Source: Stegostoma tigrinum (Eukaryota). Taken from it: a stretch of 64,000 bases of DNA. Positions 17,545 to 61,055 of the stretch are shown piece after piece (position 1 is the stretch's first letter; the number at the start of each line of letters is the position of its first letter). The notes below the pieces were generated by a model, which was given only the letters and a program-made list of their open reading frames with translations, was not told where the DNA came from and made no database searches. The stretch covers positions 22,427,015-22,491,014 of the forward strand of contig NC_081388.1 of assembly GCF_030684315.1 (NCBI RefSeq), given 5' to 3'. The translations under genes were made by a program, and so were the position numbers.

Positions 17545-19898
17545 AGACGGGGATGGGGAGAGGGTTCTGGAATAAATAGGGAGAGAGGGGGAGGCGGACC
17601 GAAGATGGAGAGAAAAGAAGATAGGTGGAGAGGAGAGTATAGGTGGGGAGGTAGGGAGGGGATAGGTCAGTCCAGGGAAGACGGACAGGTCAAGGAGGTG
17701 GGATGAGGTTAGGTAGGAAATGGAGGTTCCAACCTCTCCCCCGCAGAACGGGCAGCCCTCCACTCCAACCCCAACCTCACCATCAAACCCGCAGACAAGG
17801 GTGGCGCAGTGGTAGTATGGCGCACTGACCTCCACATCGCCGAGGCCAAACGCCAACTCTCCGACACCTCCTCCTACCGCCCCCTTGATCATGACCCCAC
17901 CCCCGAGCACCAAACCATCATCTCCAACACCATTCATGACCTCATCACCTCAGGGGACCTCCCACCCACAGCCTCCAACCTCATTGTTCCCCAACCCCGC
18001 ACGGCCCATTTCTATCTCCTTCCCAAAATCCACAAACTTGCCTGCCCTGGTCGACCCATCGTCTCAGCCTGTTCTTGCCCCCACCGAACTCAACTCCACC
18101 TATCTGGACTCCATTTTCTCTCCTTTGGTCCAGGAACTCCCTACCTACGTCCGTCACACTACCCACGCCCTCCACCTCCTCCAGGACTTCCAATTCCCTG
18201 GCCCCCAACACCTCATTTTCACCATGGATGTCCAGTCCCAATACACCTGTATTCCTCATGCAGATGGCCTCAAGGCCCTCCGCTTCTTCCTGTCCCGCAG
18301 GCTCGACCAGTCCCCCTCCACCGACACCCTCATCCGCCTAACCGAACTCGTTCTCACCCTCAACAACTTCTCTTTCGATTCCTCCCACTTCCTACAGACA
18401 AAGGGGGTGGCCATGGGCACCCGCATGGGCCCAAGCTATGCCTGCCTCTTTGTAGGTTACGTGGAACAGTCCCTCTTCCGCACCTACACAGGCCCCAAAC
18501 CCCACCTCTTCCTCCGTTACATTGATGACTGTATTGGCACCACCTCTTGCTCCCCAGAGGAGCTCGAACAGTTCATCCACTTCACCAACACCTTCCACCC
18601 CAACCTCAAGTTCACCTGGGCCATCTCCAACACATCCCTCACCTTCCTGGGCCTCTCAGTCTCCATCTCAGGCAACCAGCTAGTTACTGATGTCCATTTC
18701 AAGCCCACCGACTCCAACAGCTACCTAGAATACACCTCCTCCCACCCACCCTCCTGCAAAAATTCCATCCCCTATTCCCAATTCCTCCACCTCCGCCACA
18801 TCTGCTCCCACGATGAGGCATTCCACTCCCGCACATCCCAGATGTCCAAGTTCTTCAAGGACCGCAACTTTTCCCCCCCCGCAGTGGTCGAGAATGCCCT
18901 TGACGCGTCTCCCGCATTTCCCGCAACACATCCCTCACACCCCACCCCCGCCACAGCCACCCAAAGAGGATCCCCCTCGTTCTCACATACCATCCCACCA
19001 ACCTCCGGATACAACGCATCATCCTCCGACACTTCCACCATCTACAATCCCCACCACGTAAGACATTTTTCCATCCCCACCCCTGTCTGCTTTCCGGAGA
19101 GACCACTCTCTCCGTGACTCCCTTGTTCGCTCCACGCTCCCCTCCAACCCCACCACACCCGGCACCTTCCCCTGCAACCACAGGAAATGCTACACTTGCC
19201 CCCACACCACCTCCCTCACCCCTATCCCAGGCCCCAAGATGACTTTCCACATTAAGCAGAGGTTCACCTGCACATCTGCCAATGTGGTATACTGTATCCA
19301 TTGTAGCCAGTGTGGCTTCCTCTACATTGAGGAAACCAAGCAGAGGCTTGGGGACCGCTTTGCAGAACACCTCCGCTTGGTTCGCAATAAATAACTGCAC
19401 CTCCCAGTTGCGAACCATTTTAACTCCCCCTCCCATTCTTTAGATGACATGTCCATCATGGGCCTCCTGCAGTGCCACAAGGATGCCACCTGACGGTTGC
19501 AGGAACAGCAACTCATATTCCGCTTGGAAACCCTGCAGCCCAATGGTATCAATGTGGACTTCACCAGCTTCAATATCTCCCCTTCCCCCACCGCATCCCA
19601 AAACCAGCCCAGTTCATCCCCTCCCCCCACTGCATCCCAAAACCAGCCCAGCCTGTCTCTGCCTCCCTAACCTGTTCTTCCTCTCACCCATCCCTTCCTC
19701 CCATCTCAAGCCGCACCTCCTTTTCCTACCTTCTAACCTCATCCCACCTCCTTGACCTGTCCGTCTTCTCTGGACTGACCTATCCCCTCCCTACCTCCCC
19801 ACCTATACTCTCCTCTCCACCTATCTTCTTTTCTCTCCATCTTCGGTCCTCCTCTCCCTCTCTCCCTATTTATTCTGGAGCCCTCTCCATCCCCCTCT

Positions 19899-19926
19899 CT
19901 GAAGAAGGGTCTAGGCCCGAAACGTC
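19899..19926 (+). ncRNA. Minimal hammerhead ribozyme core
   Basis: CTGAAGA AGGGTCTAGGCCC GAAACGTC. Confidence 0.65.
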
Positions 19927-20363
19927 AGCTTTTGTGCTCCTGAGATGCTGCCTGGCCTGCTGTGTTCCTCCAGCTCGACACTGTGTTATCTCAGACTCCA
20001 GCATCTGCAGTTCTAACTAACACTATTTTCTGCATTCTGTTCTATTACCACGATGTACTGATGTGAGGAATTATTTGTCTGGTTAGCATGGGAAACAATG
20101 CTTTTCACTGTACCCCAGTATATGTGACAATAATAAATCAAATTCAATAATGGTGGTTAGCACAGTCACCATCATGAAGACTAGCCCAGATTTTTGAACT
20201 GAATTTAGATTCCACTGGGTGTTCCCAGAACATGAGCCTGTGTCTGGATAACTAGTCCACAGTCAGAAACAATACACACTGTTTCTCGATCAATCAACTT
20301 CAGCCTCTGAGAATTGCCAGTTTGTTTACAGGGTTTATGGCAGGATTTGAAGAATAGTCTCAC

Positions 20364-20428
20364 CTCGAGAGTCTCGTGTGGAATCCGGATGCTGAGCACA
20401 TGTTGCAGGCTGGATCATCAGAGATCGC
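20364..20428 (-). CDS. RALGPS-like exon (RSLMIQPATCAQHPDSTRDSR)
   Basis: 65 bp, tctttctacAG / GTGAGA, phase 2 to 1. Compare LSLKIEPGTSTPRSAASREDLV. Confidence 0.85.
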
Positions 20429-20689
20429 CTGTAGAAAGATACCAAAACACAAAACTTTTAGGGCTCCATAAACAGTTCAAACAATGCACTAACCTGGAAA
20501 TTATTCACTCTAAGTCACTGTGACCAGGTGGATACAAATGGAACACTTCCCATCTGAAATACTCATAGCCTCAGTGTTCAGTTAGACACAGGATGAAGCC
20601 CATTTGATCAATTCCAAATTCCTCAATTTAACACATTCACTCTCTCCAGTTACTGGCATCCTCACCCTGCCTCTCCCACATCATCTCAG

Positions 20690-20948
20690 AATCACAGAAT
20701 CCATTGTGTGGAAACACGCCATTTGGCCCATAGGGTCTGCACTGACCCTCCAAACAGCATCACACACGGCAACCCTATCCCTGCATTTCCCACGGCCAAT
20801 CCACCCAATCTTTGGACTGTGGGAGGAAACTGGAGCACCCGGAGGGAATGCACACAGACACAGGGAAAATGTGCAAACTCCACACTGACATTCACCTGAG
20901 GCTGGAATTGAACCCGGGTCCCTGGCGCTGAGAGGCACCGTGCCACCT
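20690..20948 (-). mobile_element. HE1-like tRNA-derived SINE
   Basis: Minus strand has B box GGTTCAATTCC, core GTGTGGAGTTTGCACATTTTCCCTGTG...CTCCGGGTGCTCCAGTTTCCTCCCACA and a CR1-like tail. Confidence 0.75.
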
Positions 20949-21139
20949 CATGTTCTATTTTTGTGAACATAATCCATATCCCAGTCCTCTCCCTAATTCC
21001 GTTTGGGTGATGGTGCGTTCTGAAACACAGCCAGCATTCCCATCAGTAAAGTTTCATTCCTCTCCTGGTTGGGGAAGTAGTAAAAGCTGACCTTTTGGAT
21101 AATTTCCTCACTGAAAGCACAGCCAAGTGCAGAACTAAC

Positions 21140-21230
21140 CTGTAGTTGTCCTGCTCCAAGAATCCCTGCAGTTCCTCGATGTATCTCTGGGAATTCAGGT
21201 ATTTCTGCACGTGAGGCAACGTCGGAAGGT
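21140..21230 (-). CDS. RALGPS-like exon, CDC25 end ([30 protein letters not shown])
   Basis: 91 bp, AG / GTTAGT, phase 1 to 2. Close match to [27 protein letters not shown]. Confidence 0.95.
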
Positions 21231-22154
21231 CTGCAAATCATCCAAGTCAGACCGTGAGGAGAAAATATGAGAGACAGCAGGAGAGGCGGAGACAGGCAAG
21301 AATGTTAACAGACTCCCACCCTCACTCGAAGTATCAATGAATCCATCAGACATTGCCAACAATTTAATCACAACACAGTGTGATTAGTGACAGCGTCTAA
21401 AGTTGCAATGAGCTCACTCCTCATCAGTGCCACCAGACCCATTAAAAACAGATGGTCTGTCATGAAGCAGAGCTAATGTCAATGGTGAGTAACTCAGAGG
21501 GCTTGAGTTCAGTTCCCAGCAGGGCGCAATTTAAACTCCATTAATGAATCCAGAATTGCAAGCTCACCTCAGGGAAAACAGAGAGAAGAAACACTTTGGT
21601 TCGCTAATACGAAGCTTTTACTCGCCAGAAACTTGATTAAAACATACAAGATTCTCAGCAGCTTGAAAGGGTAGATTTCCCCCTACGATGGAGTCCTTGG
21701 CCAGTGGGAATAATCTCAGAGTAAAGAGTTACAGTGGAGATGGAGAGGACTTTGCTTGTCTCAGTGACAAGTGAATCTGGGGAATTCTTTGCTGTAGAGA
21801 GCTGTAGAGGCTGGGTCACTAACTATATGCAAGGCTGAGATAGATATTCTTAATCAGCGCGGGAATCAGGGGTTACAGGGAAAAAGGCAGGAAAATGAGG
21901 ATGATCAAATCAGCTGTGATCCCAGAACTAGAGGGCATTATCAATGGGCTGAATGGCCTACTTTCTGCTCCTAAGTCTACGGTCACTGCTGGGTATTGTA
22001 ACCAGCTGCCAGTGCTGGGTGTCAAATACGTCAGCTGCCTCTCCTGATTTAAATGGGCTCCATTCTATGCAAGTATCTCTTCTGGGCCAGCAGGTGGACT
22101 TTACTGAGAAAGACGCAAAAAGTTAAAGCAGCCCACAGTCTCATTTCACCCAAA

Positions 22155-22345
22155 AGACAACAAAATCAGAAGTCACATGACACCAGGTAATAATCCAACA
22201 GGTTTATTTGAAATCACAAGCTTTTGGAGCGCCGCTCCTTCATCAGGAGCAAGCTGTGACTTCAGGTAAACCTGTTAGACTAGAACCTTGTGTTGTGTGA
22301 CTTTCTGACCTTGTCCACCCCAGTCCAACACCAGCATCTCCTCAA
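22155..22345. mobile_element. Palindromic Penelope-pLTR derivative (third family) with degenerate hammerhead core
   Basis: Imperfect inverted arms around minus-strand CTGATGA-AGGAGCGGCGCTCC-AAAAGCTT. Confidence 0.55.
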
Positions 22346-22372
22346 CAACAGATGATGGTCAGAGACGATTAC

Positions 22373-22510
22373 CGTATTCACAGAACTGCTGAAAGTCAAA
22401 GATGACACGTAAAACATTATTGATCAGATCACAGCGATGCTTCTTCTCCAAGGTTCCTGTCGACTGTGGAAATGCAGCATCAATGTAGGTGAGGTCGGAC
22501 AAATAAATCC
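22373..22510 (-). CDS. RALGPS-like exon, CDC25 domain (GIYLSDLTYIDAAFPQSTGTLEKKHRCDLINNVLRVIFDFQQFCEY)
   Basis: 138 bp, tcccttccAG / GTAATC, phase 1 to 1. First exon after the ANGPTL-containing intron. Confidence 0.95.
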
Positions 22511-25500
22511 CTGGAAGGGACAAGGAGCCCAGTGTCAGAGATACCAAACTCGAGGGCTCTTTCTGAAATACAAGTCTTTTGATGGTTATTAAATTTCACA
22601 AAGTGAGGGATGGTAAGCTGTTGCATCACAAATGTTTCCTTAACCAGCATCACTGGTACATTAACCAGGTCATTGACTCTTTGTATGTGGGATCTTGTTG
22701 TGCACAAATTGGGAGCTGTCAATGTTAGTATACAAAGATAACTCTTCTTAAAGCTAACTTCATCTCAAGGCAATCCAGAGGTTATGGAAGACGTTACAGA
22801 AATATTTCTTCGTACTTTCCTTCATTTCACACAGGCAGTGTCTGGTCCAGCACAAGTCATCCTGTCACTCAGTAAAACTTTTTTGGTCTTTCTGGGAAAT
22901 ATACACTCGCTTCAGAAAGGCAGCTCCTCCCCAACTGACACCCTCCTTCGGTTTGCTGCACAGTGGTATTGTTGCTGGGCTGTTAATCTAGGGACCCTAC
23001 CCCCCAGAGACCAGGGTTCAAGTCCTGCCAGGGCAGATGGGTTTTGAGTTCAATAAAAATCTGGAATTAGAAGTTTAACGACGACCATCTGGTTCACTAA
23101 TGTCCTTTAGGGAGGAAATCTGCCATCCTTACCTAGTCTGGTCAACATGTGACTCCAGGCCCACAGCAGTGTGGGTTGACTCATAACTGCCCCCTTCTGG
23201 GCAATTAGGGATGGGGGATTAAATGCTGGACTAGCCAGTGACACCCTGGATGATTAAAAAATAAAATCCCACAGGGAGCTGGATCCACATTTGAACATTT
23301 TAATTCGGGAACACACCCCACCCCTCTGAAAGGGCAGGGTGGGGTTACTACACTAACAGTGAGAACTGAATCCTCAACCTGAAAACTACAGAGATCTTTT
23401 AAAATTCATTTCTGAGATGTTAGCATTTATTATCTATCCTCATTTGCCCTTGGGAAGATTTTGGTGAGCCTGTGCGCAGGTACAGCTTCAAAACTTTGTT
23501 CTGTAACAGTGGGATAGAACAGGGTGACTCGCTCAGCGATTTCCGAAAACATTTAAGAGTTAACCACATTGTTGTGTATAGTGATTGACATTGGGCAGGC
23601 CACAAGTGGCAAGTTTCTACCAAGACAGGCTCACTGAATGTAGAGTTGTGTAAAATTTGGCAGTTTCATTACTATGAATAGGATTAACACTATTTCAGGT
23701 TTACCCATTCATTTGAAATTTCCCTAGTTTGAACTCCTCTCTCTAGCGCAGTAGTTTTGAGCCTCTGGACTACTAACCAAGTAATAAGTGCTACCTTACC
23801 ACAATTGTATTAAACTTGGAAACATGACAATTCTGAACTTTTTGAAGGCACGAGATCAAAAGTGAATTCAGACAGTTTCTGAATCTCCTGCAAAACTCCA
23901 GGTCAGAGTGACATAAGCAGGCAGCTCAGCAGTGCATCCTTGAACTAAAATGAGAGCAACTCTGGGTAAATACTGTTAAATATTTCCCACCACTTCTCTG
24001 GGGGGAATGTTCCAGTTCTGCAAACATTCACCAGGGGAGGTAGCAATCAGCTCACCCTGGCTGTCGACCAGTGCCATATCACTTCCTTCCTGTCCCTGCC
24101 CAACCTCCCTCCCCCTCTTCTGAACATAACCCATCTGCTCAAACTCTAAACAACACTGCAGCCTGCTGTGTACTGGGGGAGGTGGGGGCTTGCTGGCCTT
24201 TGTCAAATGATTAAATGATTGGATTTATGTAGCACCATTCACAACCTCAAGACATCCCAATATACTGTATTGAAGTACTTTAGGAGCTAGTCACCCAACA
24301 TGATACTAAGGTGGACACCCAGATCAGCGATTCCCAACAATATCACCCAAGTAAGTGATGTGAAGGAAGTGATGCACATTCCAGGGCCTAACCTGATCAC
24401 CTCAAACTGACTGTTATCAGGGATGGACAATGGGCAGTCCCTCAGCCTGGCCTGGCCGGACACTGCACCCGGAGGCTGCTGGACCTGGACAGCAACCGTA
24501 AACGGAGTCACCCCATCCCTCACCCGATGGTAACGGAGGGTGGTGCAGGTTTCGAGCCAAGGCAGGAACTCAAGTTGGAGTGGACCGAGAGTGAGAAAGT
24601 GTGTCTGCAGGTGTGTGAATGTGTGCAAGAATGTGTGCGAGATCGTGAGAGTGTGTACATGTGGGTGTACAGATGTGCTGGCATGAACGAGAGTGTCCAC
24701 ATATAAGTGTATGTGTGCAGGTGAGTAAATAAATGTGTATGGGTGAGCGAGCGCAAGGGTGAGTGAGCTCATGCAAGAATGTGTAAAAGTGAGGGCGTGA
24801 GAGCAATTACGAGTGTGTTGTGAACCCTGGGCCAAATATGATGCGGGGAAATGGTAGAGATCAGCAATTCTCCACAGTCGAATAAACTCAAAGTCTCAAT
24901 TTCAAATGGATTATATGGTTAACAATGAAAAACAACTGATATCTGTAGACTGCCTTTAAAAGGTGATGAAACTTCCCAAGAATGTTATAAAACAAGGTGC
25001 AACACCAAGCCATCCAAGGAGATATTAGGCCAGGTGACCAAAATCTTGGGCCAATAGGAAGGTTTTACAAGTGTCTGAAAGGAGGAAAGTGACCGAGGGG
25101 TTTAGAAAAGCAACACCAGAGCTTAATACCCAGGCCAGAGCGCATTATAAAGCAACACATTGAACTGGGATTTTTACAGAACATTCCTGCCGGTTCCTGG
25201 GCAGTTTGAGGCCCTCCTGAAAGCTCACCAACAGCTCTGGACGCACTCACTATCTGTAAATCCCTCAGTTCAGTAAATAAACCCGAGATAACTGCTTCAA
25301 AACAACACAATTTAGTGAGCTATTGTTTAAACATTGAGGCCACTGACCCGAATGTATACTTTACAATCCACTCTCACATCCATTTTGGTCATGGTTGACA
25401 AATAGTTGCAGATTTGTTTGTAAAGTGAAGTAACCTCTCTTGTCCTGTAAATGCCTTTTGCTTTCCCAGTTCCCACTGCTTCCCTCTCCTGAAGGTACTG

Positions 25501-26061
25501 GCTTAATAGAGCGGACACACAGAGACACGCTACGGGAATGCAGGCTAATCTTTTCAGTGTCTCAGCTCAGGATAGTTCAGGCCAGTTTTAACACATTAGC
25601 CCAGTCAGGCTAAAATCTCAGCCCAGAGAATAATCGCGCTGGCTCAGCCACTGAAAGAACAGGGGAAGGTCAGCAGTTTTGCTTTGGCAGTATTGCACAG
25701 CAGTGGATCCTCACTCAGCGACTGTGTGTTGGTGTGACAGTCAGCACCATGCTTTGGATATTTTAAACTGCTTTCTCACTTCCTCAACCACTTGGTGTAA
25801 GTCGGTCCTGCTTCAAGCAGGGTCAACACTCACTCCAGGAACTGGGACACAAAATCCAGGCCAACATTGGCAAAGGTGGTGGTGGTGGGGGAGTGCCACA
25901 CTGGTTGAGGTGAAGACTTTCCATCAAGCCATCAAACCGAAACCCTGTCTGGGTTTTCAGGTTAATGAAAAGGTTTCCATTGAACAATTTAAAACGAATA
26001 GCAAAGTTCCTCCCAGAGACCTGGTCAACATTTATCCCTCAATCAACATCACAAAAAACAT

Positions 26062-26188
26062 CAGAGATAATGGGAACTGCAGATGCTGGAGAATCCAAGA
26101 TAATAAAGTGTGAAGCTGGATGAACACAGCAGGCCAAGCAGCATCCCAGGAGCACAAAAGCTGACATTTCGGGCCTAGACCCTTCATC
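26062..26188 (-). mobile_element. Solo Penelope pLTR fragment
   Basis: Near-identical to 3616-3742; truncated inside the CUGAUGA box. Confidence 0.8.
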
Positions 26189-39218: not shown

Positions 39219-40661
39219 TAGCAACCATCCATTCAAACTTACTCTGAGCCACAACTGCTGGGATTCCAAACACCAAACGGGGGCCGCAGATTGAATGGCA
39301 AAGGTGGGACAGATTTCAAGGAGAGAGGAGAGAGATTTAAAACAGTCCCGAGGGGCAACATTTTCCACACACAGAGGGTGGTTCGTGAGGGAGTGGAGGT
39401 GGTTTACAACATCTAAAAAGACAGCTGGATGGATAGATGAATAGGTGGGTGTTTAAGAGGGATATGGGCCAAGCACAAGCAAATGGGAGGTCGTCAGATT
39501 GGGATGTCTGCTTGGTGCAGACGAGTTGGATTGAAGGGTTTGTTCCTGTGCTGTATGGCTATGATTCTGTAGCTGAAGGAGGGTGAAGGGGAGGGAAAAA
39601 CACAAAAATTGTATAGCAACGGGTTGGGGGCCCTCACCTCATGTATGGTTCTGATGCAGGCTCATTGATACAGATTGGTCAATAACGCTCTTATGAGGTT
39701 ATGTGCTCCCAGGGCCACTGCAGCCTAAGGCTGGTCTGAATCCATCGAGAATTCCCATTTCCCAAGGGATACAAGAACAAAGAGACATGATAGATACAAG
39801 CAAGGAAAGTGGCCGCTGTAACAGCCAGGGAGACACAGACACACCTCCTGTCATCTCTGGCCAGTGAAGGTCATCTCCCTTACCCCAAACCCCACCTCCC
39901 ACATCCTGCCACTTTCCTCTCTCGGCTCCTATTTCACACACAGTCTGAAAGGCACAGGTCCAGTTCCCCAATGGGGATGGTGAACCCCAACACTGCTACA
40001 CTGAATCTTAATCCAGTTTCATCAAACCTGGATTTAGCACAGCGATCACAAAGACTGCTGGGAAATGATGAGCATCCGATACAGAGAACCCAGTGGAACC
40101 ACATCCAGTAACAGGGAGACGGGTAGAACCAGGGCCAACTTAAACTCTAAGCCCCCCTCCCAGCCTTACTCAGACACCATCCCGCAGCCATTCAAGGGGC
40201 AGGTTTATTTCAAAGGTAAAGTTCAAACAAATGTCTGAAGATCAGATGAAAGATTGAAATGTGTTGCAAAAGAAGGCAGGAGTTAAAAGAAGGGGCAGGA
40301 CTGTCCTGTGGGGCTGGGAGCATTCTCTGACCTTTCGATAATTGCCACTCATCTCAGATAAAAGCAAGTTCCTGCCAGCAGCGAATAGACTCATTTTCTG
40401 TGATAATAGTGTCTTGCAGTGATGGTCTTTTAAAAAAAAGAGGTCAATACAACAAAGCCGTGCCCACAGCTTTAATAACATAGCAACCACTGACAATAAA
40501 CACATGAACTGGAGCACAGTTTATCGAGAAAAAGTCTCCCTCCCATTTAAGGCAAAGCCATCGAGCTGTACAGCACAGGAATAGACCCTTCAGTCCAACC
40601 AGATAGCCTAAATAAATCGAGTTCCATTTGCCAGCATTTGGCCCACATCCCTCTAAACCCT

Positions 40662-40747
40662 GATAATAAAATGTGAGGCTGGATGAACACAGCAGGCCAA
40701 GCAGCATCTCAGGAGCACAAAAGCTGACGTTTCGGGCCTAGACCCTG
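40662..40747 (-). mobile_element. 86-bp Penelope pLTR fragment inserted into a CR1 tail, with an 8-bp TSD
   Basis: TAAACCCT at 40654-40661 and 40748-40755. The uninterrupted host sequence is visible at 6935-6960. Confidence 0.85.
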
Positions 40748-41782
40748 TAAACCCTTCCTATTCATGCACCCATCCAGACAGCTTTTAAATGTTGTAATTG
40801 TACCAGCCTCCACCACTTCCTCTGGCAGCTCATTCCACCACCCTCAGATAGAGACTGCCACAAACAGATTGGCTATGATCTTCTTGATCCTTATCTTCTC
40901 TGATTGAGTGTGACCACTCAAGCTCAAGCACAGGTCACACAATGGTGAAATAGAGCCCACATCAGCACTGGTTAGTCCAGGACAGGGTGTCAGCTTGGCC
41001 TGGGTCAGATTAGCTGAGCCTACAGCAGTACCCACTCTGGTCCTGAGCTATGAGAGCCCAGTGAAGGACAAAAGGAATGCAGCACTGTCAGAAGGGCTGC
41101 ATTTCCATTGAAAGGCTGCTTCATGTTGAGCTGGAAGTGAAAGATCAGGGACTAGGAACACCAGGTTCTAGTTAATATCCTTCTGTCGGTCACCAAACAC
41201 TGAATAACTATTGATCCCTACCATTGACACTCCTGGGATCATGCTCTGCGTGAAATGACGGCATCCACCCGTAAGACTGTAGGAGCAGCAGTAGGCCATT
41301 CAGCCCATTGTATGCACTGCTATTCAATGGCTGATCTGATAATCATCAGGTAGACATTCCTGTCTCTTTCTTTGATTGCTTTACTCATTAAAAATCTCAC
41401 TATCTCAACCTCGACAGCCTCCTGCAGTAAAGAATTCCAGACTCACTCCCCTCGGAGAAGAAGAAATTCCTCCACATCTATCTCGGATGGGAAACTCCCA
41501 GGTTGTGCTCTGCCCCACAAGGGCAAACAACTGCAAACCGTCACTAACTCCATTTCTAACCCAGTAAATCTTGTTTACAGAGGGAGGTTTATTTTCACGT
41601 TTTGTCAAATCAAAGGCCTGGCATCAGCTTGCTCCCTCTGATGGGTGTACTGGGGTCAGGGACAGAAATGGTTTTATTCTCAGCAGCAATATCCTGGGAC
41701 TGAGCATCAGAATAACAAACGCACAGGGCCGGCTGGGAGGGAAGGGGCCCATGGGGTTACCGTGTGATTTTTTTTTGACCAG

Positions 41783-41976
41783 GTCCCTGGAAAGATTGTC
41801 TCCAGGCTTTGGAAGATGGTCATCAATCCAATGGGATCTACTTAATCAAACCAACCACTATTAGCCGGCTGATGCAGGTCTGGTGTGAACATGAGGAAGG
41901 TCCAGGTGGCTGGACTGTCATCCAGAGACGACAAGATGGCTCGGTCAATTTCTTCAGGAGCTGGGAGAGTTACAAG
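41783..41976 (+). CDS. ANGPTL6: ANGPTL6-like coding exon 3: fibrinogen domain start (GPWKDCLQALEDG...GGWTVIQRRQDGSVNFFRSWESYK)
   Basis: 194 bp, tttttttgaccAG / GTGAGT, phase 1 to 0. Not in the ORF track; translated by hand. Confidence 0.95.
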
Positions 41977-42198
41977 GTGAGTATGTGAAGTCAGTGCATC
42001 AGCTGGCTAACACTCCACCCTCAAGTTCACTTTTGGTCCATCTGTCTCCACTCCCCTCACCTATTCCCATATCAGCCCAGGGCCTAGTGTACAGGGGGCA
42101 CCGTCAACTTACTGGGCACTATATACCCAACCTCTCTCCCAGGCCCTGTTCACACCATAGGAGATACTGGAGAAACTCAGCAGGTATGGGGGTGGGGA

Positions 42199-42293
42199 GG
42201 AGAGACAGAGAGAGAGAGACAGAGAGAGAGAGACAGAGAGAGAGAGACAGAGAGAGAGAGACAGAGAGAGAGAGACAGAGAGAGAGAGACAGA
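42199..42293 (+). repeat. (GAGAGACA)n microsatellite
   Basis: Visible directly in the sequence. Confidence 0.9.
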
Positions 42294-42501
42294 AAAAAGG
42301 TTAATATTTCAAGCCCAGAATGACCTTCTTTGGAACCAAGTTATTGGATTCACAATATTAACTGTTTCTCACTGCACCGATGCTGCCAGATCTGCTGAGT
42401 TTCTCCAATACTTGTTTCGGTTTCAATGTACTTGCTTTTCAATGACTATTCGCTGACACACAGACACACAGAGTAAATGTTGCCTGGATTCTTATCTGCA
42501 G

Positions 42502-42772
42502 CAAGGTTTTGGGAACATTGATGGTGAATACTGGCTGGGTTTGGAGAACATCTACTGGCTGACCAATCAGGATAACTACAAGCTGCGAATCCTAATGGAT
42601 GATTGGCAAGGCAGGAGAGTGTTTGCAGAGTACGACGATTTCCGTGTGGAAGCAGAGGGAGACTTCTACAGGTTGCGGTTAGGCCATTACCACGGGAATG
42701 CCGGAGATTCCTTCTCCTGGCACAACGGCAAGCAGTTCACCACCCTGGACAGGGATCGGGATCTGTACTCAG
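42502..42772 (+). CDS. ANGPTL6: ANGPTL6-like coding exon 4: fibrinogen domain (QGFGNIDGEYWLGLENIY...FTTLDRDRDLYS)
   Basis: 271 bp, ctgcAG / GTAGGA, phase 0 to 1. Confidence 0.95.
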
Positions 42773-42861
42773 GTAGGACTGTTTCCTCGGCGTTACCCTG
42801 CAATGGTCAATCGGGTTAATGAAGGGTTTTCCTCATTACTGTCAGTGTGTTTCCTTCCAAG

Positions 42862-43058
42862 GTAACTGTGCCCACTACCAGAAAGGAGGCTGGTGGTATT
42901 ACACCTGCGCCCACTCAAATCTGAATGGAGTGTGGTATAAAGGAGGTCACTACCGCAGCAAGTACCAGGATGGTGTTTACTGGGCAGAATTCCGCGGTGG
43001 GGCCTACTCTTTGAAGAGAGTGGTGATGATGATATGTCCAAACCAGATACTGCTGTAA
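42862..43058 (+). CDS. ANGPTL6: ANGPTL6-like coding exon 5 (GNCAHYQKGGWWY...EFRGGAYSLKRVVMMICPNQILL*)
   Basis: 197 bp after an 89-bp intron; TAA stop at 43056-43058. Confidence 0.95.
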
Positions 43059-44059
43059 TCTATACTCTCTGCTTTACAACCAGAACTCGTGTCACATTTC
43101 CCACATGTTAGCATCAGCCATCTTTTAATCACAATTTCACATATCGTGTTACACAATCACTATTGTATAAGCAAAGTTTCAGACAACAGAACTACCTACT
43201 TAGAGTATAATATGGCTTGATGGGCTTAAAGCAGACCCAAAGCTGTTTCTTCTGTTCTGTAGTTCAGACTGAATGGTCCTGAGGACAATAATGATGTTGG
43301 TTAAGGGACAGAGCTCATAATATTCACCAGATCCCATTCCAGCCTCTCGTGTCGCCTCCCCCCTCCCCTCCCTCCCTCCTGCAGGGATCCTCGTAGAAGT
43401 TACTCTAGACAAGAAACAAACCAAACTATTCTAATATCACTCAATTTAATACAACAGTTCAGTGCATCCCAGGTGTTTAAAAAATAGCTGCTGTGTCTTT
43501 TCAGTGAATTGTAGAAATTAAAATTTCATGAAAAGCAGCAGCTATCTTAGAAATGTCAGGATAATGAGAAACTAAAATGCCTTATTTCCTGGTTCACAGA
43601 GACAGACAGAACTATGCACACACTGTCAGGGTGCAAGAAGCAAATTGGATGGTCTTCATGCAGGTTAAAGTGAACACAGCTGCCAAAGCAGAGGACTGCT
43701 CCCCAGTCCCACACTGACTGGGGTCACTGAGGTGTGAGGTGAGAGTGGTACATGGAGGGGCACCCTCTGTGGGTTGGCAGGGGGTGAGGGGTTTATATGA
43801 TTGGTGGTTTTACCCTGTAGACAGATTTGCTACACCTCCCTCCATGTGTCTGATGTGGAGACTGGGTGTGCAATGACAGAACGGGTCTTGTTCTCTGGGC
43901 CAGCATCCCACGCCTCAAACACCAAAAGACAAGTCCCCAGGACAGATGAACAGAACATTACGGTAAACATCTACAACCAACACATGGGGCTGATTTCAAA
44001 CCCATAACCTCTGTGGGATGTCAGTGGGGACAATTATCTGAAATTAAATATTGGCATCA

Positions 44060-44425
44060 CATCCACAAGCATCCACTACCGATGCTCAGTGCACACTGCG
44101 GTTACTATCTACATGGTGCACAGTAGAAATTCACCAAAGATCCTCAGGCAGCACCTTCCAAACCCATACCTGCTTCCATCTAGAAGGACCAGGGGCAGCA
44201 GACACACAGGAACACCACCCCCTGCAAGTTCCCCTCCGAGGCACTCACCATCCTGACTTGGAAATATATCACCGTTCCTTGTGTTGCTGGGTCAAAATTG
44301 TGGAATCCCTCCCTAACAGCATTGTGGGTCATCCCACAGCACACGGACTGCCTTTTCAAGGGGCAACTAGGGACAGGCAATACGTGCTGGCTCAGCCAGT
44401 GATGCCCACGTCCCCCAGAGTGAAT
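44060..44425 (+). mobile_element. CR1-type LINE 3' fragment, same family as 1340-2440 (also 54185-54470 and 57590-57855)
   Basis: Shared CAGCACCTTCCAAAC..CTTCCATCTAGAAGGAC..GCAGCAGACAC; ORF 57648 contains GVPQGSVLSP. Confidence 0.75.
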
Positions 44426-47200
44426 TAGAAAAAATTAGCAACACAGGAATAGTGGGAAGCCATTCAGGCCTGCGACCTGTTCTTGTGTCCAATGAGATTG
44501 TAGCTGATGGATAACCCAAATTCCACACGCCCCTCAAGGCCCTCCCCAAAGCAACCTTCATCAGTCTGAGTTTTGACTTGAGACTACAGCCTCAGCAGCT
44601 TTCTGTGAAGGACAGCTCGAGATTTATACTGCCTGTGTGTCAGGCAGTGCTTCCTGTCATCACCAGTTAATTATGCAGGCTTGAATTTTAAAATTCTGTC
44701 CCCTGTCCTGCTCCAGCCCACCCCCACCCCCACCACAACACAGCCTCAGGAGGAGGTCATTTCTATCCTGACCCGATCAGATCTTTGAATGCTATTAAAC
44801 ACTTTAACTACACCACCTCTTCATCTTCTATGCTCAGGAGATACATGTCCAAGTCCATATCATTTATCTTCAATTTTAACTTTTTTTTAAAATATCTCCA
44901 GTATGACTTCAGTCAGTTAACCATTAGTGTCTGTATTCAGAATCCTGGTACTTACAATCCACAATCTAGGGCTTCACAGGGTATATACAACACATACAGG
45001 CCATTCAGCCCAACCACTGAAGGCTGGCACTGATGATCTCCTCAACCCTGCTCCAAATCTCAGTGTAACTCTCTACCCGCCTCTCCCTCAAACATTCCTT
45101 TAGTTCCATTAAATAAATCAGTGTTATTCACTCCAATCTCTCCCTATGGGAGTAGGTTCCACATTCTCACCTCTGTCCAAGTGGACTTCTTGGCGAATAT
45201 CATACCGACTTCCTCCAATTCTGTTCTTTCCCACAAGAGGAATATTTTATGTTTTAAAACCTTTAATGATTTTTAAGGACCTTCATTAGGTCACCTTCTG
45301 TTTTCAAGGAGAGAATTGGCCGCTGTCAATCGTTTCCTGATGTACTCACTCATGTTTCTGGTTTCATGCTTAGAAACATCCAGGGCACCCTCTCCAGTGC
45401 CTCTACGTACACTTTATAAAAATGACAACCAGAACTGCACATGGTACTCTCTGCACTCCCTGCATTCCTCCACTTCACACTTTTCCCACTGTACACTCCT
45501 CAGCCTGACCTGGCTCAAACAGACAGCAACGCTGGCTCTTGTACCTCCTGAACAGGCCAGCAGGAGGCGATCACAATTCAGCTTGCAGTGGTTCATCATT
45601 TCCAACCCGTCCCTCTTCTCATGAGTAATGAAATTCACCGAGACCATCATTCTGTGTGGGAACCCATCAGAACAATCAAATTCCCTAGGTTAGATCATTT
45701 TCTTTAAACTAAACATGGCCCTGCTATTTCCTAGAAAACTGACCCTGAACTAGATGCATTCTCATCGTAGATATGAATCCATTAACTCTATGTTTTTGCT
45801 TACACTTCTGAGCGCTAGAAAAACCACTGTAAATATCAGAATAAATAAACCACTTTCTGCTGTAATATACTATAGTTCCATTGTGGATCAGTGAGATATT
45901 GGATAGTCTTAGTGTATGTGTTGACCACAGCGTCCAAATCAACACAGAGTCCATTTTGGGTAAAATCAGAACTACATGGAGAGAGAAACAGCTTCCAGTC
46001 ACTGCTCACTGTCACACCCAATTGCTCATCATTGGAAAGAGCGGGTTGGATTTTCATTCAATCTCAGGATAGCGGGAATTAAAGAGCAGAAAAAAGCGCT
46101 GGGTTTTGGGAGGAGATGTGCAAATAAATATAAAAGATGCAGGAGCAGACTGAGACAGTCACCACTTTATATGCACCGTCCACCGTCCACCGTCAGCCAA
46201 ATCCCTATCATCAGTTCTCTCTGCGCTTGTGAATTACGTGATGCCTCTCTGTCGATTGGCATGAATCCTCCTTCAAAGACAATGTGGAGTTTTAAACTTT
46301 TATTGATGTCCCTCGCACCATTCTGTATCAGAATCTGGAAGATGCCATGCTGCTGATTGCAGCCAGGGTGAAGGGGTGGTCAATGTTGTCCATGAACTGG
46401 AAGACCCTCACAGCAGGAAATGTGACTGCTCCACCTTATTCCCATCATTTCTCCACAGATCTTAAACTAAACCGTATGGCCAACATTACAATGTGGAAAT
46501 AATAAACTAACTAATTGTGGATGAGAAGATTGTTAGTTATTAGGAACCTCCCACTAAGAGTTTCAAAGCTGGTCATTTCTTTGACTCATTGAAGACTTTC
46601 ACACATCAGTAAAATTGATGTAACGAAGTTTAGATAAAATACCATCTCCAAATTAAAACTGTTCACCAGTGTTCTGTCCCTCTGTTTTAACTCCAAGGTT
46701 TCTGACGCATAACACGCTCATAACAATTGCAGTTTCCCTCAGACAACTCTCCTGTGTGCAACATTAGAGATGGATCACTGCAGTTGTGTATCACTGAGGC
46801 AGAGAGGGTCAACTTGAAAAATCAGACACCCTTCGCTTCTAAAGAAATCTCAGCGATGTTGTTTCATAGGTGGATCACCTGCACATCCTCCTGCCTCAAA
46901 ACAGAAGTTTTTTTAAAAAAAAAGTTTCTAACACACCAAGCACAATCCCAACAAAGCAGGATTCGCACCACTGCTATTTCAGAGCTGATTTCACTATTTC
47001 CTAGTGACCCCAGAGTTCATGTTAGAATCCTGCAGCAAAAGGTAAAAAACAATGCATGGGCATCAGATCAAAGTGGGGTGAGACCCCTCATTCCCTGGGG
47101 TCAAAAGATGGGATTGTAGGCAACAATACTGAAACGTGTGATGATAGCAGTTGCTGAGCACCCAGCCTCCCTGCAAAAGATAGGAGGAGATTCAACTCAC

Positions 47201-47327
47201 CTAAATATGGAACACACGGAGTTTCCTTCAAACAGTTGATGTAATCTCGGAGCTCTTTATAGTTGTTGTCGCTGGACATCAGAGTCTGCAGCTTTTCAAA
47301 CACAGCCTTATCTTTCCTGCTCAACAG
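47201..47327 (-). CDS. RALGPS-like exon, CDC25 domain ([42 protein letters not shown])
   Basis: 127 bp, TAG / GTGAGT, phase 0 to 1. Contains the conserved P-x-[VI]-PYLG motif. Confidence 0.95.
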
Positions 47328-47432
47328 CTACAATTAAAAGAACAAAAATAAATTTAACGACCACATTCCTCTCATGTAAACAGATCTCTCTTGGATCATA
47401 GTGAACTGCAACAGCTGACAGTACTCAACTGG

Positions 47433-47543
47433 TCCCAACTGCCCCGTCTCAGTCCCAAACTGACCCCACAGCGCTGCTCCCAACTGCCCCATCTCAGTCC
47501 CAAACTGACCACACAGCGCCACTCCCAACTGCCCCGTCTCAGT
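47433..47543 (+). repeat. 45-bp tandem repeat, about 2.5 copies
   Basis: Unit CCCAACTGCCCCGTCTCAGTCCCAAACTGACCCCACAGCGCTGCT. Confidence 0.85.
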
Positions 47544-47906
47544 CTCACTCAGTTGGGTGGACAGTTGTTCTGCGATGGAGAACCTCACCAACAGATTTAC
47601 CATGAAGGCCGTACCTTCTCAACCTCACCCAAGATGTGGTGACCCTCAGGTTAAATTAACCACCAGTTCAGCAATAATACCATTAGGCCATATTGTAAAT
47701 ATTATTCACTGCTGCTCTTTCCCCATAGCCCTGTATCAATCCCAACTCTGCCTGCTTCCTGCCTGAGCACATCAAAAGGGAGAGAGGCTAAATATCTTGT
47801 GAAGTGATCTGTTCTGGTATCAGTTTTGTGGGAGGTACAGAGATTCACACTGTACTTGTATGGCTGAAATTGATGAAAATTAATACACACACACACACAC
47901 ACACAC

Positions 47907-48659
47907 ACAGAAATTCAGATGGAAAACAAAACAATCCACGAGCATTATGATTGGCAATCTCCTGCCTATTCCCTGTACTCTTCCACACTATTTCTACCTA
48001 AATAATTATCCAATGCTCTCTTCAAGGCCTCAGTTGAACTTATCTCTGCCACAGTTCCTAGCAGTGCATTCCACACTGTCTTGTGGTTCTTGGTCTTTTG
48101 ACAAGAGGGGACAGCTATTCCCAATCTAGTTTGTGCAACCTGCAAATGATTTGCAAAACCTCTAATCAGATCTCTATCAGTCACCGTCTCTCCAAGAATG
48201 GTCCTAACCTTTTCTAATCAACCCTCATCACTGAATAAACTCTAATAGAGTGTGTGGGCTGAATGAATTGACGTAATCAGACCCTTATTGCTGAAAACAA
48301 GATCATTGAGATAGGGCTATAAGGTAAACTTGAGTGTTTTACTTATTTGGATTTGTGTTTTGGTTTATTTTGTGCTTTAGCTTGGTGCTGGAAAGTGGGA
48401 ACACTGAACAACACTTTTCACTGGGTTTGTAATAAATAGGCATGCAAACGAATCAAATCAAGGTTACCCAGCCAACAAAACATTAACTGTGCTTTTCAAC
48501 AGAAAACTTATCTATGGCAGAGATAAGTTCAACTGAGGCCTTGAAGAGAGCATTGGATAATTATTTAGGTAGAAATAGTGTGGAAGAGTACAGGGAATAG
48601 GCAGGAGATTGCCAATCATAATGCTCGTGGATTGTTTTGTTTTCCATCTGAATTTCTGT
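47907..48659. repeat. Perfect 145-bp inverted repeat (47907-48051 / 48515-48659, 463-bp spacer)
   Basis: Base-by-base comparison with the reverse complement shows no mismatch. Confidence 0.92.
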
Positions 48660-48919
48660 TGCACAACCGACACAAATATTCAAATCTCACCATAATCCCA
48701 CTACTTGACCAATTCATCAAATTCCTGCACTGCCTGAATAGATCAGAACTTTCTGATTTAAAAAAAGCAAAATAGTGAAACTCAACATCTATTATCTGTG
48801 TAGAGAGAGCAAGAGCGAGAGCGAGAATATGCTGGAGTCTCCTCCAGCATCTTCCACCTGGTATAATGTTCAATACCACCAACAATTATAAAGTCACCCA
48901 GAAACAGGCATCGACCTAC

Positions 48920-49012
48920 CGCCCACGTTTTTGACAATCTGAACACTGGAGTGCTCTGTAATGCTGAAACGACTGCCATCAACCCATGAAGATTATGGAG
49001 ACCCTGAAGTTT
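48920..49012 (-). CDS. RALGPS-like exon, CDC25 domain ([31 protein letters not shown])
   Basis: 93 bp, tttcttttgcAG / GTAGGT, phase 0 to 0. Confidence 0.95.
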
Positions 49013-49258
49013 CTGCAAAAGAAAGAAACTAGTTTTTAAGAGGAATCCTTTCCCTGACCTCAATGAAATGGCAGGAGGAAAGACCTCATCTCATCATTTC
49101 TTGCCGAGTTCTTGTTACCAAAGGCTATCCAAGCTAAGCAGGTGCGATATGCACCACCTTCATGGCCTGTAGAAAACTCTCAGCAATCATATACTTGGGG
49201 GAACTGGGCAAACCTTCAGGGTGCTGCACAGATCTGCTCAAAATCCACAGAAACTCAC

Positions 49259-49348
49259 CTTGGCAATTTTGATAAAATGCCCAACAACTTCCACTCTTCG
49301 TTTCAGTGTCTGTTTGGTGAGAATCTCCTGGATGACCCAGAAACTGAC
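49259..49348 (-). CDS. RALGPS-like exon, CDC25 domain ([30 protein letters not shown])
   Basis: 90 bp, ttttttttccAG / GTGAGT, phase 0 to 0. Confidence 0.95.
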
Positions 49349-49980
49349 CTGGAAAAAAAAGCGAGAATCCTTCATTTCCCCATCACATTACCATGTCTCA
49401 GAGTGCTCTGGAGGCCAAGTCACTGGGTGTGTTTAATGCAGCGATAGATGGGTTGTTGATTACTCAGGGGGTCAAGGTTTAGGGCGAGAATAGGGTTGAG
49501 AAACACATCAGCACAACTGAATGGTGGAGAAGACATGATGGACTAAACTCTGCTCTATATCGTACGGTCTTACGGTCTCGGATACCAACAGATTTTAGCC
49601 AAGAATGTTATAAGTAATATTTCTTTACTTGAATTTATTGCATCAAAAAGTTTAAAAACTTTAGAACTCTCCATCTCCCATAGATCCCATTAACAAGCAG
49701 CTTATCACAAGTTTAAGATTTCATTTTTCATTCTCCTGCCAAATCGTTTTAGCAATTAAATATCTGCAGACTGTTTGAGGGGGACATTTAATTGAAATTC
49801 CTACAGCATGAGTGAGAAATAGACCTCAGGCATGAGGTGGGACAGTCAAATGGCACTGAGCATGGACAGATTACCAGGGCTACGGCTGCTCGACGATGCG
49901 GAAATTAAAAGGACCACATTAGTTTGAGCATTTCAGTCCGTCTGGTTAGTTACCAGATCGTGCCTGCTTCCACATTCTAC

Positions 49981-50064
49981 CTGGTTAAATCTCCGGGTAA
50001 AAGCACCCACATTGGGAGCCAAAGCGTGTTTTTGTTTCTTGTTCCAACGGCAATCAGACAATTC
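49981..50064 (-). CDS. RALGPS-like exon, CDC25 domain ([28 protein letters not shown])
   Basis: 84 bp, AG / GTAGAA, phase 0 to 0. Compare [28 protein letters not shown]. Confidence 0.95.
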
Positions 50065-51689
50065 CTGTTTGGTAAAGAAAACAAACACAGAAGATTTAAT
50101 TCCTCACCCAATGAAAACTGAATAAATTATCATTCCAGATCCCAATTTGAAATTCACCCTTCTAATCCAAATATTACTTCCCTGCTACAGGACACAGCTC
50201 TTCCTCTTTTTAAATCTGTGCTTTTGTTCAAGCTGCTTGCCAAAGTGCCCAGGGGTTTAAATCAGCCACTGCTTCATCGGGCCGACCCTACCAGTGCAAT
50301 ACTGAGGGCGCGCCACACTGCCCGGGGGTCAGCGCCGCACTGATAGGTTTTATGCCCTCTGTCATAAAAGTAAAAATCCCACAGCAGTTATTCAAAGAGG
50401 AGGAGGAGAGTTTTCTCTGGGAGTCTGGGAAAATATCTGTCTCAAAACCCATGACTTGATACTTATTTCATCACCATTAATGGGATCTTGCTGTGTGCAC
50501 ATAGGCTGCCAAGCCCCCTACATCACAGCAGCGACCACACTACACCAGTGCATCACTGGCTACATCAAAGTGCTCTGAACTTGTCAAATGTGGAGACTTT
50601 TCCAAATTTGATTACATGCTTGTGCGAAAGAAGTTGGCGTAAGCTCCCAAAGTTTGGAGGAGGATGCTGAGCAAGTCCAGTTTGGTGCTTGATTGCAAAC
50701 CCATTGTAAGCTCTGTCGACCCAGTAAAACGTGCACTCGATGGTACAACATACGTCTTATGATCAGCCTAGTGTACATTGAAACTCAATGTGGTTTGAAT
50801 GAACTAAAACCAAAGACAGACAGTGACCAATGATCTGAATCACTCTTCAACTAACCACCATCTCCAAATGATAATCTTCTGTAGATTACATGTGAGAGGC
50901 TATTTCTAATATTGAGAGTTTAAGAAGGCCTAAAATAAACTGCTGACCCATTCCAAGTTTGAGAAGGGGGGGTGCAGGGGAGGAGAGAGAGGAGCGTGAG
51001 CAGGCACACTGGAAACGAAATGTTTCATCAAATAAATTCCAAAATTGAACACAGATGTTTTTCCAGACTCTTGAATTTTAATTACACAACTTTGTTCTTT
51101 GGAAAACAACATGAGTTGGTCATAAAATGATTTTATTAAAAAGTTAAATCAAGATTATTTTAATTTGAAGAGAAAGAAAGAAAGACCAAGGGGTTGGGAG
51201 GAGGAAGGTGCTGAACAAAGTGAAATGGAGTAAACGTCTCAGCCAGAGGTTGGAGCTGTACCCCCCTCCAACCTTTGGAATGCAGTCTGTGTTTTAAGCC
51301 GATGGCACACAATTGAAGATCAGAATCCCTCACTTCCAGCAGCCAGGCTCCCAGCTGTAATGAAGTGGATCATCCCAAACAAACTGCCATCAAACCTCAA
51401 CTCACAACTCAAACAACTGGCACTGAGTCAACAAACAATATGCTGCATTCAAATAGCATCTTTCATAGGAAAGCATTCCAGTGCTTCACCACAGTTACCA
51501 GTGCCATTGAAGGAGATAGGACCCCCTCAGCCGTTTAAAGCTCAGTCAAACAGTTCTTTGACAAGACGAGGGGATGGATGGGGTACAAGACAACCCCAAA
51601 GCTGAGGTCTTCGCCAGCTACAGACATGATCCCCCCTGCCCCTCAATTGCGAAGAGAATTAAATGAAGGATGCACAAGATGCCAGGAAC

Positions 51690-61046: not shown

Positions 61047-61055
61047 GCGCGCGCG

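Follow-up and report, generated by a model that had tools for sequence, protein, structure and literature searches.

An intriguing feature of this locus is that a gene of the ANGPTL family lies inside a RALGPS gene, which raises the question of how old that arrangement is and what became of it in other vertebrates. Two antisense pairs of this kind occur in the human genome, ANGPTL1 within RALGPS2 and ANGPTL2 within RALGPS1, according to the part of a published account that describes them (PMC6371847). The window, by which we mean the whole 64,000-nucleotide stretch of zebra shark (Stegostoma tigrinum) DNA analyzed here, holds a pair drawn from the same two families with the same antisense nesting. 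We are confident that this pair is an intact ANGPTL6 gene antisense within a third RALGPS gene, referred to here as RALGPS3, and that the three pairs likely descend from one nested pair through the two early vertebrate genome duplications. Literature searches found no published description of RALGPS3, or of ANGPTL6 inside a RALGPS gene.

The nesting itself was read directly in the zebra shark genome. As had been predicted, the ANGPTL gene lies wholly within, and on the opposite strand to, the phase-1 intron that follows PYL-G and precedes IYL, which is intron 7 of RALGPS3; the GT donor, the AG acceptor and the exon models agree on this placement (Table 1). The NCBI model of the host, P0324, splices exon 7 straight to exon 8, and a tblastn search of intron 7 with four RALGPS proteins found no RALGPS exon within it. 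The expectation that this would be a third nested pair was borne out by the rest of the genome, in which three RALGPS loci are paired with three ANGPTL1/2/6 loci, the guest is antisense at each, and the PYLG/IYL phase-1 junction and the intron are identical at all three. The guest-bearing intron is ~122 kb long in the RALGPS2/ANGPTL1 pair (contig C10) and ~222 kb long in the RALGPS1/ANGPTL2 pair (contig C37). Because the arrangement recurs at these two other loci, the nesting in the window is not a matter of chance. For other species the evidence is linkage, and the two genes sit on contigs of matching length in 10 of the 11 other elasmobranchs in which both were seen, with consecutive RefSeq accessions in five.

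Table 1. Features of the RALGPS3/ANGPTL6 locus (positions are those of the window).
Feature	Position	Strand	Description
RALGPS3 host gene	889..61700	-	19 coding exons, 549 aa; CDC25 (RasGEF), linker without PxxP, PH
RALGPS3 exons 1-7	61700-61647, 58591-58496, 56174-56124, 50064-49981, 49348-49259, 49012-48920, 47327-47201	-	placed by tblastn
RALGPS3 exons 8-13	22510-22373, 21230-21140, 20428-20364, 13972-13867, 13121-13003, 11809-11752	-	placed by tblastn
RALGPS3 exons 14-19	10435-10364, 9410-9323, 8035-7943, 6133-6031, 2738-2647, 918-889	-	placed by tblastn
RALGPS3 exon 7	47201..47327	-	ends PYL-G, phase 1 donor GT
RALGPS3 intron 7	22511..47200	-	24,690 bases, phase 1, PYLG/IYL, holds ANGPTL6
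RALGPS3 exon 8	22373..22510	-	starts (G)IYL, preceded by AG acceptor
RALGPS3 exon 11	13867..13972	-	proline-rich TPP/PxxP site of RALGPS1/RALGPS2; motif missing here
ANGPTL6	37392..43058	+	five coding exons, 496 aa; model identical to P0001
ANGPTL6 coding exons	37392-38030, 38289-38478, 41783-41976, 42502-42772, 42862-43058	+	all GT-AG, intron phases 0,1,0,1
Extra phase-0 intron of ANGPTL6	38031..38288	+	after coiled coil; not in same-genome ANGPTL1, ANGPTL2
Pyrimidine tract and AG acceptor	37357..37391	+	directly upstream of ANGPTL6 start codon

The guest encodes a hydrophobic N-terminus, a coiled-coil region and then a fibrinogen C-terminal domain (Pfam Fibrinogen_C, E 1.9e-69), and its N-terminal region can be aligned along ANGPTL1/2/6. 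Since a pyrimidine tract and an AG acceptor abut the start codon, a putative non-coding first exon may lie further upstream. The original prediction had named the gene ANGPTL6, and the ANGPTL tree places it apart from ANGPTL1 and ANGPTL2, in a clade with coelacanth ANGPTL6, bichir ANGPTL6 and an unnamed turtle protein (97/97; a tree of 13 rows without an outgroup or a mammalian ANGPTL6, with one ANGPTL1 and with the root set on ANGPTL2 by choice). Separate ANGPTL1 and ANGPTL2 loci exist alongside it in the same genome; the gene on C37 groups with Xenopus ANGPTL2 (97/94), and the gene on C10 takes the name ANGPTL1 by exclusion and from the RALGPS2 gene that hosts it, there being no named ANGPTL1 reference in the tree. 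The motifs and the extra phase-0 intron quoted as marks of ANGPTL6 are indeed present in the gene. As marks, however, the motifs fail, since GGAYSL is present in shark ANGPTL2 while coelacanth and bichir ANGPTL6 carry GGSYSL, and PPLVxVxP is common to shark ANGPTL1. The extra intron, which gives ANGPTL6 one more coding intron than the guests of the other two pairs, is the sole mark that separates it from its two paralogues, and it does so within the zebra shark genome.

The flanks of the locus are of the ANGPTL6 type, as had been anticipated. Within 160 kb the order is DNMT1(+), EIF3G(-), a P2Y receptor(-), PPAN(-) and RALGPS3(-) with ANGPTL6(+) inside it, the first four lying within 140 kb; EIF3G is inverted relative to what we take to be the human order. 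PPAN was identified by reading the flank, and a Brix-family search of the genome gave no match for it even though it is present there. The P2Y-type receptor has P2RY1 as its best solved match, and the name P2RY11 would follow from its position. Of the neighbors expected from human 19p13.2, EIF3G, PPAN and the P2Y receptor are thus close by, but SHFL is 4.5 Mb away on the same contig. Two exons of the upstream neighbor gene had no Pfam match and no solved-structure match. Two of the neighboring genes have paralogues solely on contigs C10 and C37. An angptl6-eif3g-dnmt1 order is conserved in vertebrates, as stated in part of an earlier report (PMC6976628). The zebra shark gene shares its clade with the ANGPTL6 of coelacanth and bichir, and its neighbors DNMT1, EIF3G and PPAN with the ANGPTL6 of bony vertebrates (in human at 19p13.2). 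It differs from them in still lying within a RALGPS gene, and it has stayed closer to ANGPTL2 than the turtle sequence has. According to the portion that covers the gene, a 2017 survey detected angptl6 in neither elephant shark nor little skate (PMC5237311). RefSeq now names ANGPTL6 in many sharks and rays.

The host is a complete gene with an open frame, GT-AG boundaries at 18 of 18 introns and no internal stops. P0324 is identical to our model over exons 2-19 and differs from it in an insert after exon 2 and in its first exon. RefSeq thus already carries automatic models of both genes, with the host named RalGPS1- or RalGPS2-like. The RasGEF and PH domains of P0324 both score above the Pfam cut-offs, and the C-terminal PH domain does so in all four full-length RALGPS3 proteins scanned; PH exons scanned singly gave no Pfam match. 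About 32 residues precede the CDC25 domain, too few for a REM domain. The whale shark orthologue (P0051) has RalGPS1 (3qxl) as its top solved match, with an E value of 7.8e-111 against 2.7e-38 for the runner-up. RALGPS3 resembles RALGPS2 in its N-terminal-side CDC25 domain (67% identity), C-terminal PH domain (60%), PYLG/IYL junction and C-terminal LMSFE ending. Unlike RALGPS2, it has no PxxP SH3-binding motif after the CDC25 domain (0/9 RALGPS3, versus 12/12 RALGPS2 and 8/8 RALGPS1), and its protein has evolved far faster. Since that motif is missing, RALGPS3 is, judged from its sequence, a variant of the RalGPS functional class and not a plain member of it. A sequencing-run search with the last exon and 3' region of RALGPS3 returned no RNA run among the matches listed.

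With respect to the age of the host, RALGPS3 forms its own clade (100/100) inside the vertebrate RALGPS clade (95/98; outgroups crinoid, tunicate and oyster) and outside the RALGPS2 clade (100/98), which spans chimaera to mammal. An origin of RALGPS3 by duplication within cartilaginous fishes is rejected by approximately unbiased (AU) tests, both from RALGPS2 (p 0.0006, 0.0046) and from RALGPS1 (p 0.004), and phylogeny thus shows the RALGPS3 clade to be older than the shark/bony-fish split. RALGPS2 is likely its sister gene; the sisterhood has a weak 82/61 in the mixture model and 95 in a simpler one, with p values of 0.024 and 0.035 for the alternatives. The copies have two properties expected of ohnologues, in that they predate the jawed-vertebrate split by the AU tests and lie on paralogous contigs by the two neighboring genes.

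RALGPS3 was seen in 14 sharks and rays, and none was found in bony vertebrates or chimaera among the matches listed (the best 120 of 2125, and 150 representatives). Though unlikely, it is possible that chimaera or some bony vertebrates (coelacanth, lungfish, gar, bichir) still carry the gene, whole or in relic form, unannotated or hidden among RALGPS1/2, in which case its loss would have been later and repeated. The search covered proteins only, and a copy more than 50% identical to RALGPS1/2 could vanish into their clusters; on the other hand, all eight proteins that outscored RALGPS2 among the best 120 of 2125 profile matches are from elasmobranchs (624-982 bits versus at most 562), and RALGPS2 of coelacanth, lungfish, gar, bichir and chimaera is present among those matches. 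When the 340 rows listed were classed by best reference, 10 (8 proteins) were close to RALGPS3, all of them from elasmobranchs. Four distant non-elasmobranch rows also matched RALGPS3 best, at 33-47% identity, and the closest of these, P0273, was rejected as a divergent bony-vertebrate RALGPS3 as it falls outside the vertebrate clade. A less probable alternative is that RALGPS3 is decaying in sharks and rays, with little or no function, and is heading for the same loss that other lineages have already undergone. Its CDC25 domain differs by ~25% between species pairs in which RALGPS1 or RALGPS2 differs by 1-3%, yet the domains are far better conserved than the linker (zebra shark versus skate, 75% identity for CDC25, 66% for PH and 39% for the linker). 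Of the 160 CDC25 columns that are invariant in RALGPS1 and RALGPS2, RALGPS3 proteins keep only 117-135, a point against the reading preferred below, and nine are altered in all nine RALGPS3 proteins. The loss of PxxP, the odd 5' end of the NCBI zebra shark model and four RefSeq orthologues that are short or without PH (whale shark 465 aa, Heterodontus 292, Mustelus 224, Hemiscyllium 358) would suit decay, but the 19-exon open frame with canonical splice sites, the full-length CDC25 and PH models in both sharks and batoids, and the several RefSeq isoforms each in catshark and Chiloscyllium would not.

Two further explanations concern the origin of the pair. The locus might have originated in cartilaginous fishes by segmental duplication of RALGPS2/ANGPTL1 or RALGPS1/ANGPTL2, with a guest that is not ANGPTL6. 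In keeping with this, the fibrinogen domain of the guest resembles shark ANGPTL2 (81%) more than it does coelacanth ANGPTL6 (77%), and some elasmobranch orthologues bear the database names ANGPTL2-like or ANGPTL1-like, but the rejection by AU tests, the clustering of the guest with bony-vertebrate ANGPTL6 and the DNMT1-EIF3G-P2Y-PPAN flanks make such an origin very improbable. Slighter still is the chance that each ANGPTL gene came into its RALGPS host on its own, once the duplications had taken place. The loci read all postdate the duplications, which leaves some room for this idea, but the intron, its phase and the antisense orientation are shared at all three loci, and three insertions into one of ~18 introns are far less parsimonious than one.

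Descent from a single nested pair is the reading that we prefer, and since the sister genes of ANGPTL6 sit likewise in RALGPS1 and RALGPS2, the nested layout is likely to predate the vertebrate genome duplications. The original prediction is upheld to that extent by the three paired loci, the shared intron, the ANGPTL6-type flanks and the pre-split host clade. At the first duplication RALGPS1/ANGPTL2 would have parted from the common precursor of the remaining two pairs, the second would have given rise to RALGPS2/ANGPTL1 and RALGPS3/ANGPTL6, and a fourth nested copy was presumably lost. In sharks and rays, RALGPS3 appears to have been kept under relaxed but real constraint, probably as a Ras-independent Ral exchange factor recruited to the membrane via its PH domain, and because the PxxP motif is gone it may no longer be linked to Grb2 and other SH3 adaptors. 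The host exons around ANGPTL6 would have disappeared in bony vertebrates, leaving ANGPTL6 where it was, beside PPAN. On balance, we lean toward the view that sharks and rays retain a Ral exchange factor uncoupled from adaptors, and that the bony-vertebrate ancestor lost the exons of this gene to deletions flanking ANGPTL6 on either side. Mammalian ANGPTL6 had been predicted to be left behind as its host decayed; the absence of RALGPS3 from the protein searches suggests that the guest did outlive its host, but RALGPS3 is undecayed here and its loss is apparently older than mammals.

The mechanism, an ohnologue kept in sharks and lost differentially elsewhere, is already of a known kind. Pdx2, as part of one report describes it (PMC2944030), is an ohnologue kept in cartilaginous fishes and lost in most bony vertebrates, and RALGPS3 likewise is a copy from the early genome duplications that sharks and rays retain, with the difference that here the loss would have struck a host gene while its nested guest survived. 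Relative to RALGPS1 and RALGPS2, RALGPS3 has no counterpart among the bony-vertebrate matches listed, and it adds an unnamed paralogue, mislabeled in databases as RalGPS1- or RalGPS2-like, to the vertebrate Ral exchange factors. Without the SH3-binding motif it is a natural deletion variant for probing Grb2 coupling in RalGPS signaling. The nesting would date to before the duplications behind the ANGPTL1/2/6 trio, and un-nesting through loss of the host, not movement of the guest, would account for two of the three being nested and the third not. If this is correct, human ANGPTL6 would be a nested gene that lost the host whose intron it occupied, and what separates ANGPTL6 from PPAN, a short stretch of DNA, would be the remnant of the 3' half of the host, an exact interval in which to seek host relics. 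The locus would then allow a natural test of the constraint that nesting may place on the sequence and expression of a guest gene.

The zebra shark window holds an ANGPTL gene of five exons nested antisense, as originally predicted, in an intron of a third RALGPS-type gene, here called RALGPS3, between an exon ending PYL-G and one beginning IYL. The intron is 24,690 bases long, has GT-AG borders and is in phase 1, and the translated guest (496 residues) is 100% the same as P0001, the database protein that NCBI names angiopoietin-related protein 6 of Stegostoma tigrinum. A splice acceptor precedes the ANGPTL6 start codon, which implies a putative non-coding first exon, and a promoter of its own within the RALGPS3 intron would drive ANGPTL6. 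Three masked stretches in the window are all intronic and overlap no modelled exon. RALGPS3 intron 10 contains a retroelement with a 433-residue frame that weakly matches reverse transcriptase (E 2e-05, below the cut-off). The frame that follows resembles a GIY-YIG endonuclease, presumably that of a Penelope-like element, and had no Pfam match.

Coordinates of host, guest and neighbors. Positions without a prefix are in the window; C45 is its contig (NC_081388.1), L-numbers are stretches read from C45 around the window, and C10 and C37 carry the RALGPS2/ANGPTL1 and RALGPS1/ANGPTL2 pairs.
Feature	Position	Strand
RALGPS3 (host)	889-61700; C45 22.428-22.489 Mb	-
Exon ending PYL-G	47327-47201	-
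Exon beginning IYL	22510-22373	-
Last RALGPS3 exon	918-889	-
ANGPTL6 (guest)	37392-43058; C45 22.464-22.470 Mb	+
Intron-10 retroelement	17713-19394	+
DNMT1	C45 22.33 Mb	+
EIF3G	C45 22.36 Mb; L024:2358-4573	-
P2Y-type receptor, single exon	C45 22.39 Mb; L021:4228-5178	-
PPAN exons	C45 22.42 Mb; L018:3017-4471	-
SHFL, two tandem copies	C45:17851006-17857059; C45:17918189-17924299	
Gene adjoining RALGPS3	C45:22508962-22509141 (L026)	
Its paralogues	C10:91759847; C10:91962499; C37:37335659	
Repeated stretch	C45:22511015-22551014 (L027-L030)	
AK5-like adenylate kinase	C45:22558202 onward (L031-L034)	
Paralogues of its N-terminal exon	C37:36007306; C10:92165947	

The ANGPTL fibrinogen exon has three close loci in the zebra shark genome (100, 83 and 71%), and the remaining 19 of its 22 matches do not exceed 49%; the coiled-coil exon of the C37 ANGPTL gene finds the same three loci, and each of the two RALGPS exons also finds three. 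On C10 and C37, ANGPTL lies between both RALGPS exons on the opposite strand, as in the window, and the junction sequence and phase are identical at all three RALGPS loci; the window thus contains the third nested pair that had been proposed. The C37 host is the NCBI zebra shark RalGPS1-like protein (P0070), whose contig has an equal length, and in the tree its guest falls with Xenopus ANGPTL2. On C10 the host exons correspond to RALGPS2, and the guest is ANGPTL1, by its host and by exclusion. That human ANGPTL2 lies in RALGPS1 and ANGPTL1 in RALGPS2, as antisense pairs, is borne out by a published account, which names no intron (PMC6371847).

In a 13-row tree of 364 columns, with no outgroup, no mammal and a long turtle branch, the window gene groups with sequences of elasmobranchs, coelacanth, bichir and turtle (97/97), apart from shark ANGPTL1 and from shark and frog ANGPTL2. 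Two motifs put forward as ANGPTL6 marks failed: GGAYSL occurs in shark ANGPTL2, while coelacanth and bichir ANGPTL6 have GGSYSL, and PPLVxVxP is present in shark ANGPTL1 too. The extra phase-0 intron, a further proposed mark, is found only in the window gene among the three shark paralogues. The guest is ANGPTL6, and synteny gives stronger proof of this than the tree. The expected synteny with human 19p13.2 is partial: DNMT1, EIF3G, the P2Y-type receptor and PPAN flank the host, but SHFL (shiftless, UPF0515) lies 4.5 Mb from ANGPTL6 and EIF3G is seemingly inverted. Four genes (RALGPS3, PPAN, the receptor and EIF3G) share a strand in head-to-tail order; EIF3G and DNMT1 are tail to tail, a layout from which the human arrangement presumably differs. 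The angptl6-eif3g-dnmt1 grouping is described as conserved across vertebrates (PMC6976628), and human 19p13.2 holds PPAN-P2RY11 (PMC5793191).

RALGPS3 in the window is a whole gene. With RALGPS proteins of whale shark, Heterodontus, bamboo shark and zebra shark as queries, tblastn located exons between 61700 and 2647, and the last exon closes the frame, giving 19 exons, 1650 bases and 549 residues, with GT-AG borders at all 18 introns and no internal stops. The NCBI model P0324 ('RalGPS2-like', 596 residues) shares exons 2-19 with ours and differs by an insert following exon 2 and another first exon; our exon 1 agrees with the starts of the whale shark, catshark and Mustelus orthologues. Both RasGEF and PH exceed the Pfam cut-offs in P0324, and the top solved-structure match of the whale shark orthologue is RalGPS1.

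Judged by its phylogeny, RALGPS3 is an old third paralogue. The main tree (CDC25 and PH, 363 columns) used 28 of 36 aligned rows, excluding eight near-duplicate or partial ones, and recovered RALGPS3 (100/100), RALGPS2 from chimaera to seal (100/98) and RALGPS1 (95/91) as clades. Placing RALGPS3 as sister of shark RALGPS2, of chondrichthyan RALGPS2 or of shark RALGPS1 was rejected with 17 rows (AU p 0.0006, 0.0046 and 0.004, respectively). The best grouping joins RALGPS3 with RALGPS2, at no more than 82/61 under a mixture model; with LG+G4 its support is 95, and the alternatives have p values of 0.024 and 0.035. At fixed differences, which are not polarised, RALGPS3 agrees with RALGPS2 at 21 and with RALGPS1 at 9. 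For two upstream neighbors, the AK5-like kinase and the adjoining gene, which we take to be an ST6GALNAC-type sialyltransferase, the only paralogues lie on C10 and C37, the pattern expected under chromosome-scale duplication. Single exons of the latter had no Pfam or PDB match; it is possibly another ohnologue retained on the C45 chromosome, and three AK5-type genes of the long form may persist in zebra shark. About 40 kb, 89-100% repeated among the stretches read, separates these neighbors. C45 measures 25 Mb, compared with 104 Mb for C10, and one copy from the second duplication is reported to retain genes more poorly (PMC7269912); we infer that C45 belongs to this class.

Elasmobranchs, 14 species or assemblies in all, yielded RALGPS3 sequences; nine were aligned and eight entered the main tree, the remainder being 90% cluster members or one short model. 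RALGPS3 and ANGPTL6 are on contigs of equal size in 10 of 11 other species in which both genes were seen, and their RefSeq accessions are consecutive in zebra shark and five of these (Heterodontus, catshark, Mustelus, Pristis and Amblyraja). In whale shark the ANGPTL model is incomplete, and its contig spans 10.7 kb. The data from the other 11 species show linkage, not nesting. In Mustelus asterias (P0149, P0417) the RALGPS3 model ends at the ANGPTL-bearing intron (224 residues) and the ANGPTL model has 306 residues, owing to either an assembly gap or local decay. RALGPS3 models are also short in whale shark, Heterodontus and Hemiscyllium (P0051, P0122, P0425); P0051 and P0122 are without the PH domain, ending via donor-site read-through or just past exon 11. 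Among the best 120 of 2125 matches to a RALGPS3 profile, elasmobranch proteins fill the top eight places (624-982 bits), followed by a RALGPS2 at 562, and none of 340 listed matches is a non-elasmobranch protein close to RALGPS3. With only elasmobranch proteins near RALGPS3 among the matches listed, the gene has quite likely been lost from bony vertebrates and chimaera.

RefSeq already has automatic models of host and guest, with RalGPS1- or 2-like labels for the host. The literature searched, with subscription papers and supplements outside its scope, describes neither a third RALGPS nor a nested ANGPTL6; RALGPS3 may already figure in the ohnologue tables that supplement genome papers. According to a 2017 family survey, angptl6 was not found in cartilaginous fishes (PMC5237311).

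RalGPS proteins activate Ral without need of Ras, and in RalGPS2 the PH domain binds PIP2 and a PxxP motif binds Grb2 and PLC-gamma, as reviewed in PMC13119517. RALGPS3 retains both CDC25 and PH, whereas PxxP between the end of CDC25 and a conserved HR motif is present in none of nine RALGPS3 orthologues, compared with 12 of 12 for RALGPS2 and 8 of 8 for RALGPS1. RALGPS3 is fast-evolving: CDC25 identity is 75% between zebra shark and skate (RALGPS1, 97%) and 82% between Heptranchias and Pristis (RALGPS2, 99%). It is still constrained: between orders the domains hold 64-78% identity while the linker drops to 38-47%. Four short RefSeq models, and the absence of 25-43 of the 160 CDC25 residues that are invariant elsewhere, count against the reading of RALGPS3 that we nevertheless hold to be probable: a membrane-targeted Ral GEF, uncoupled from adaptors and under relaxed selection.
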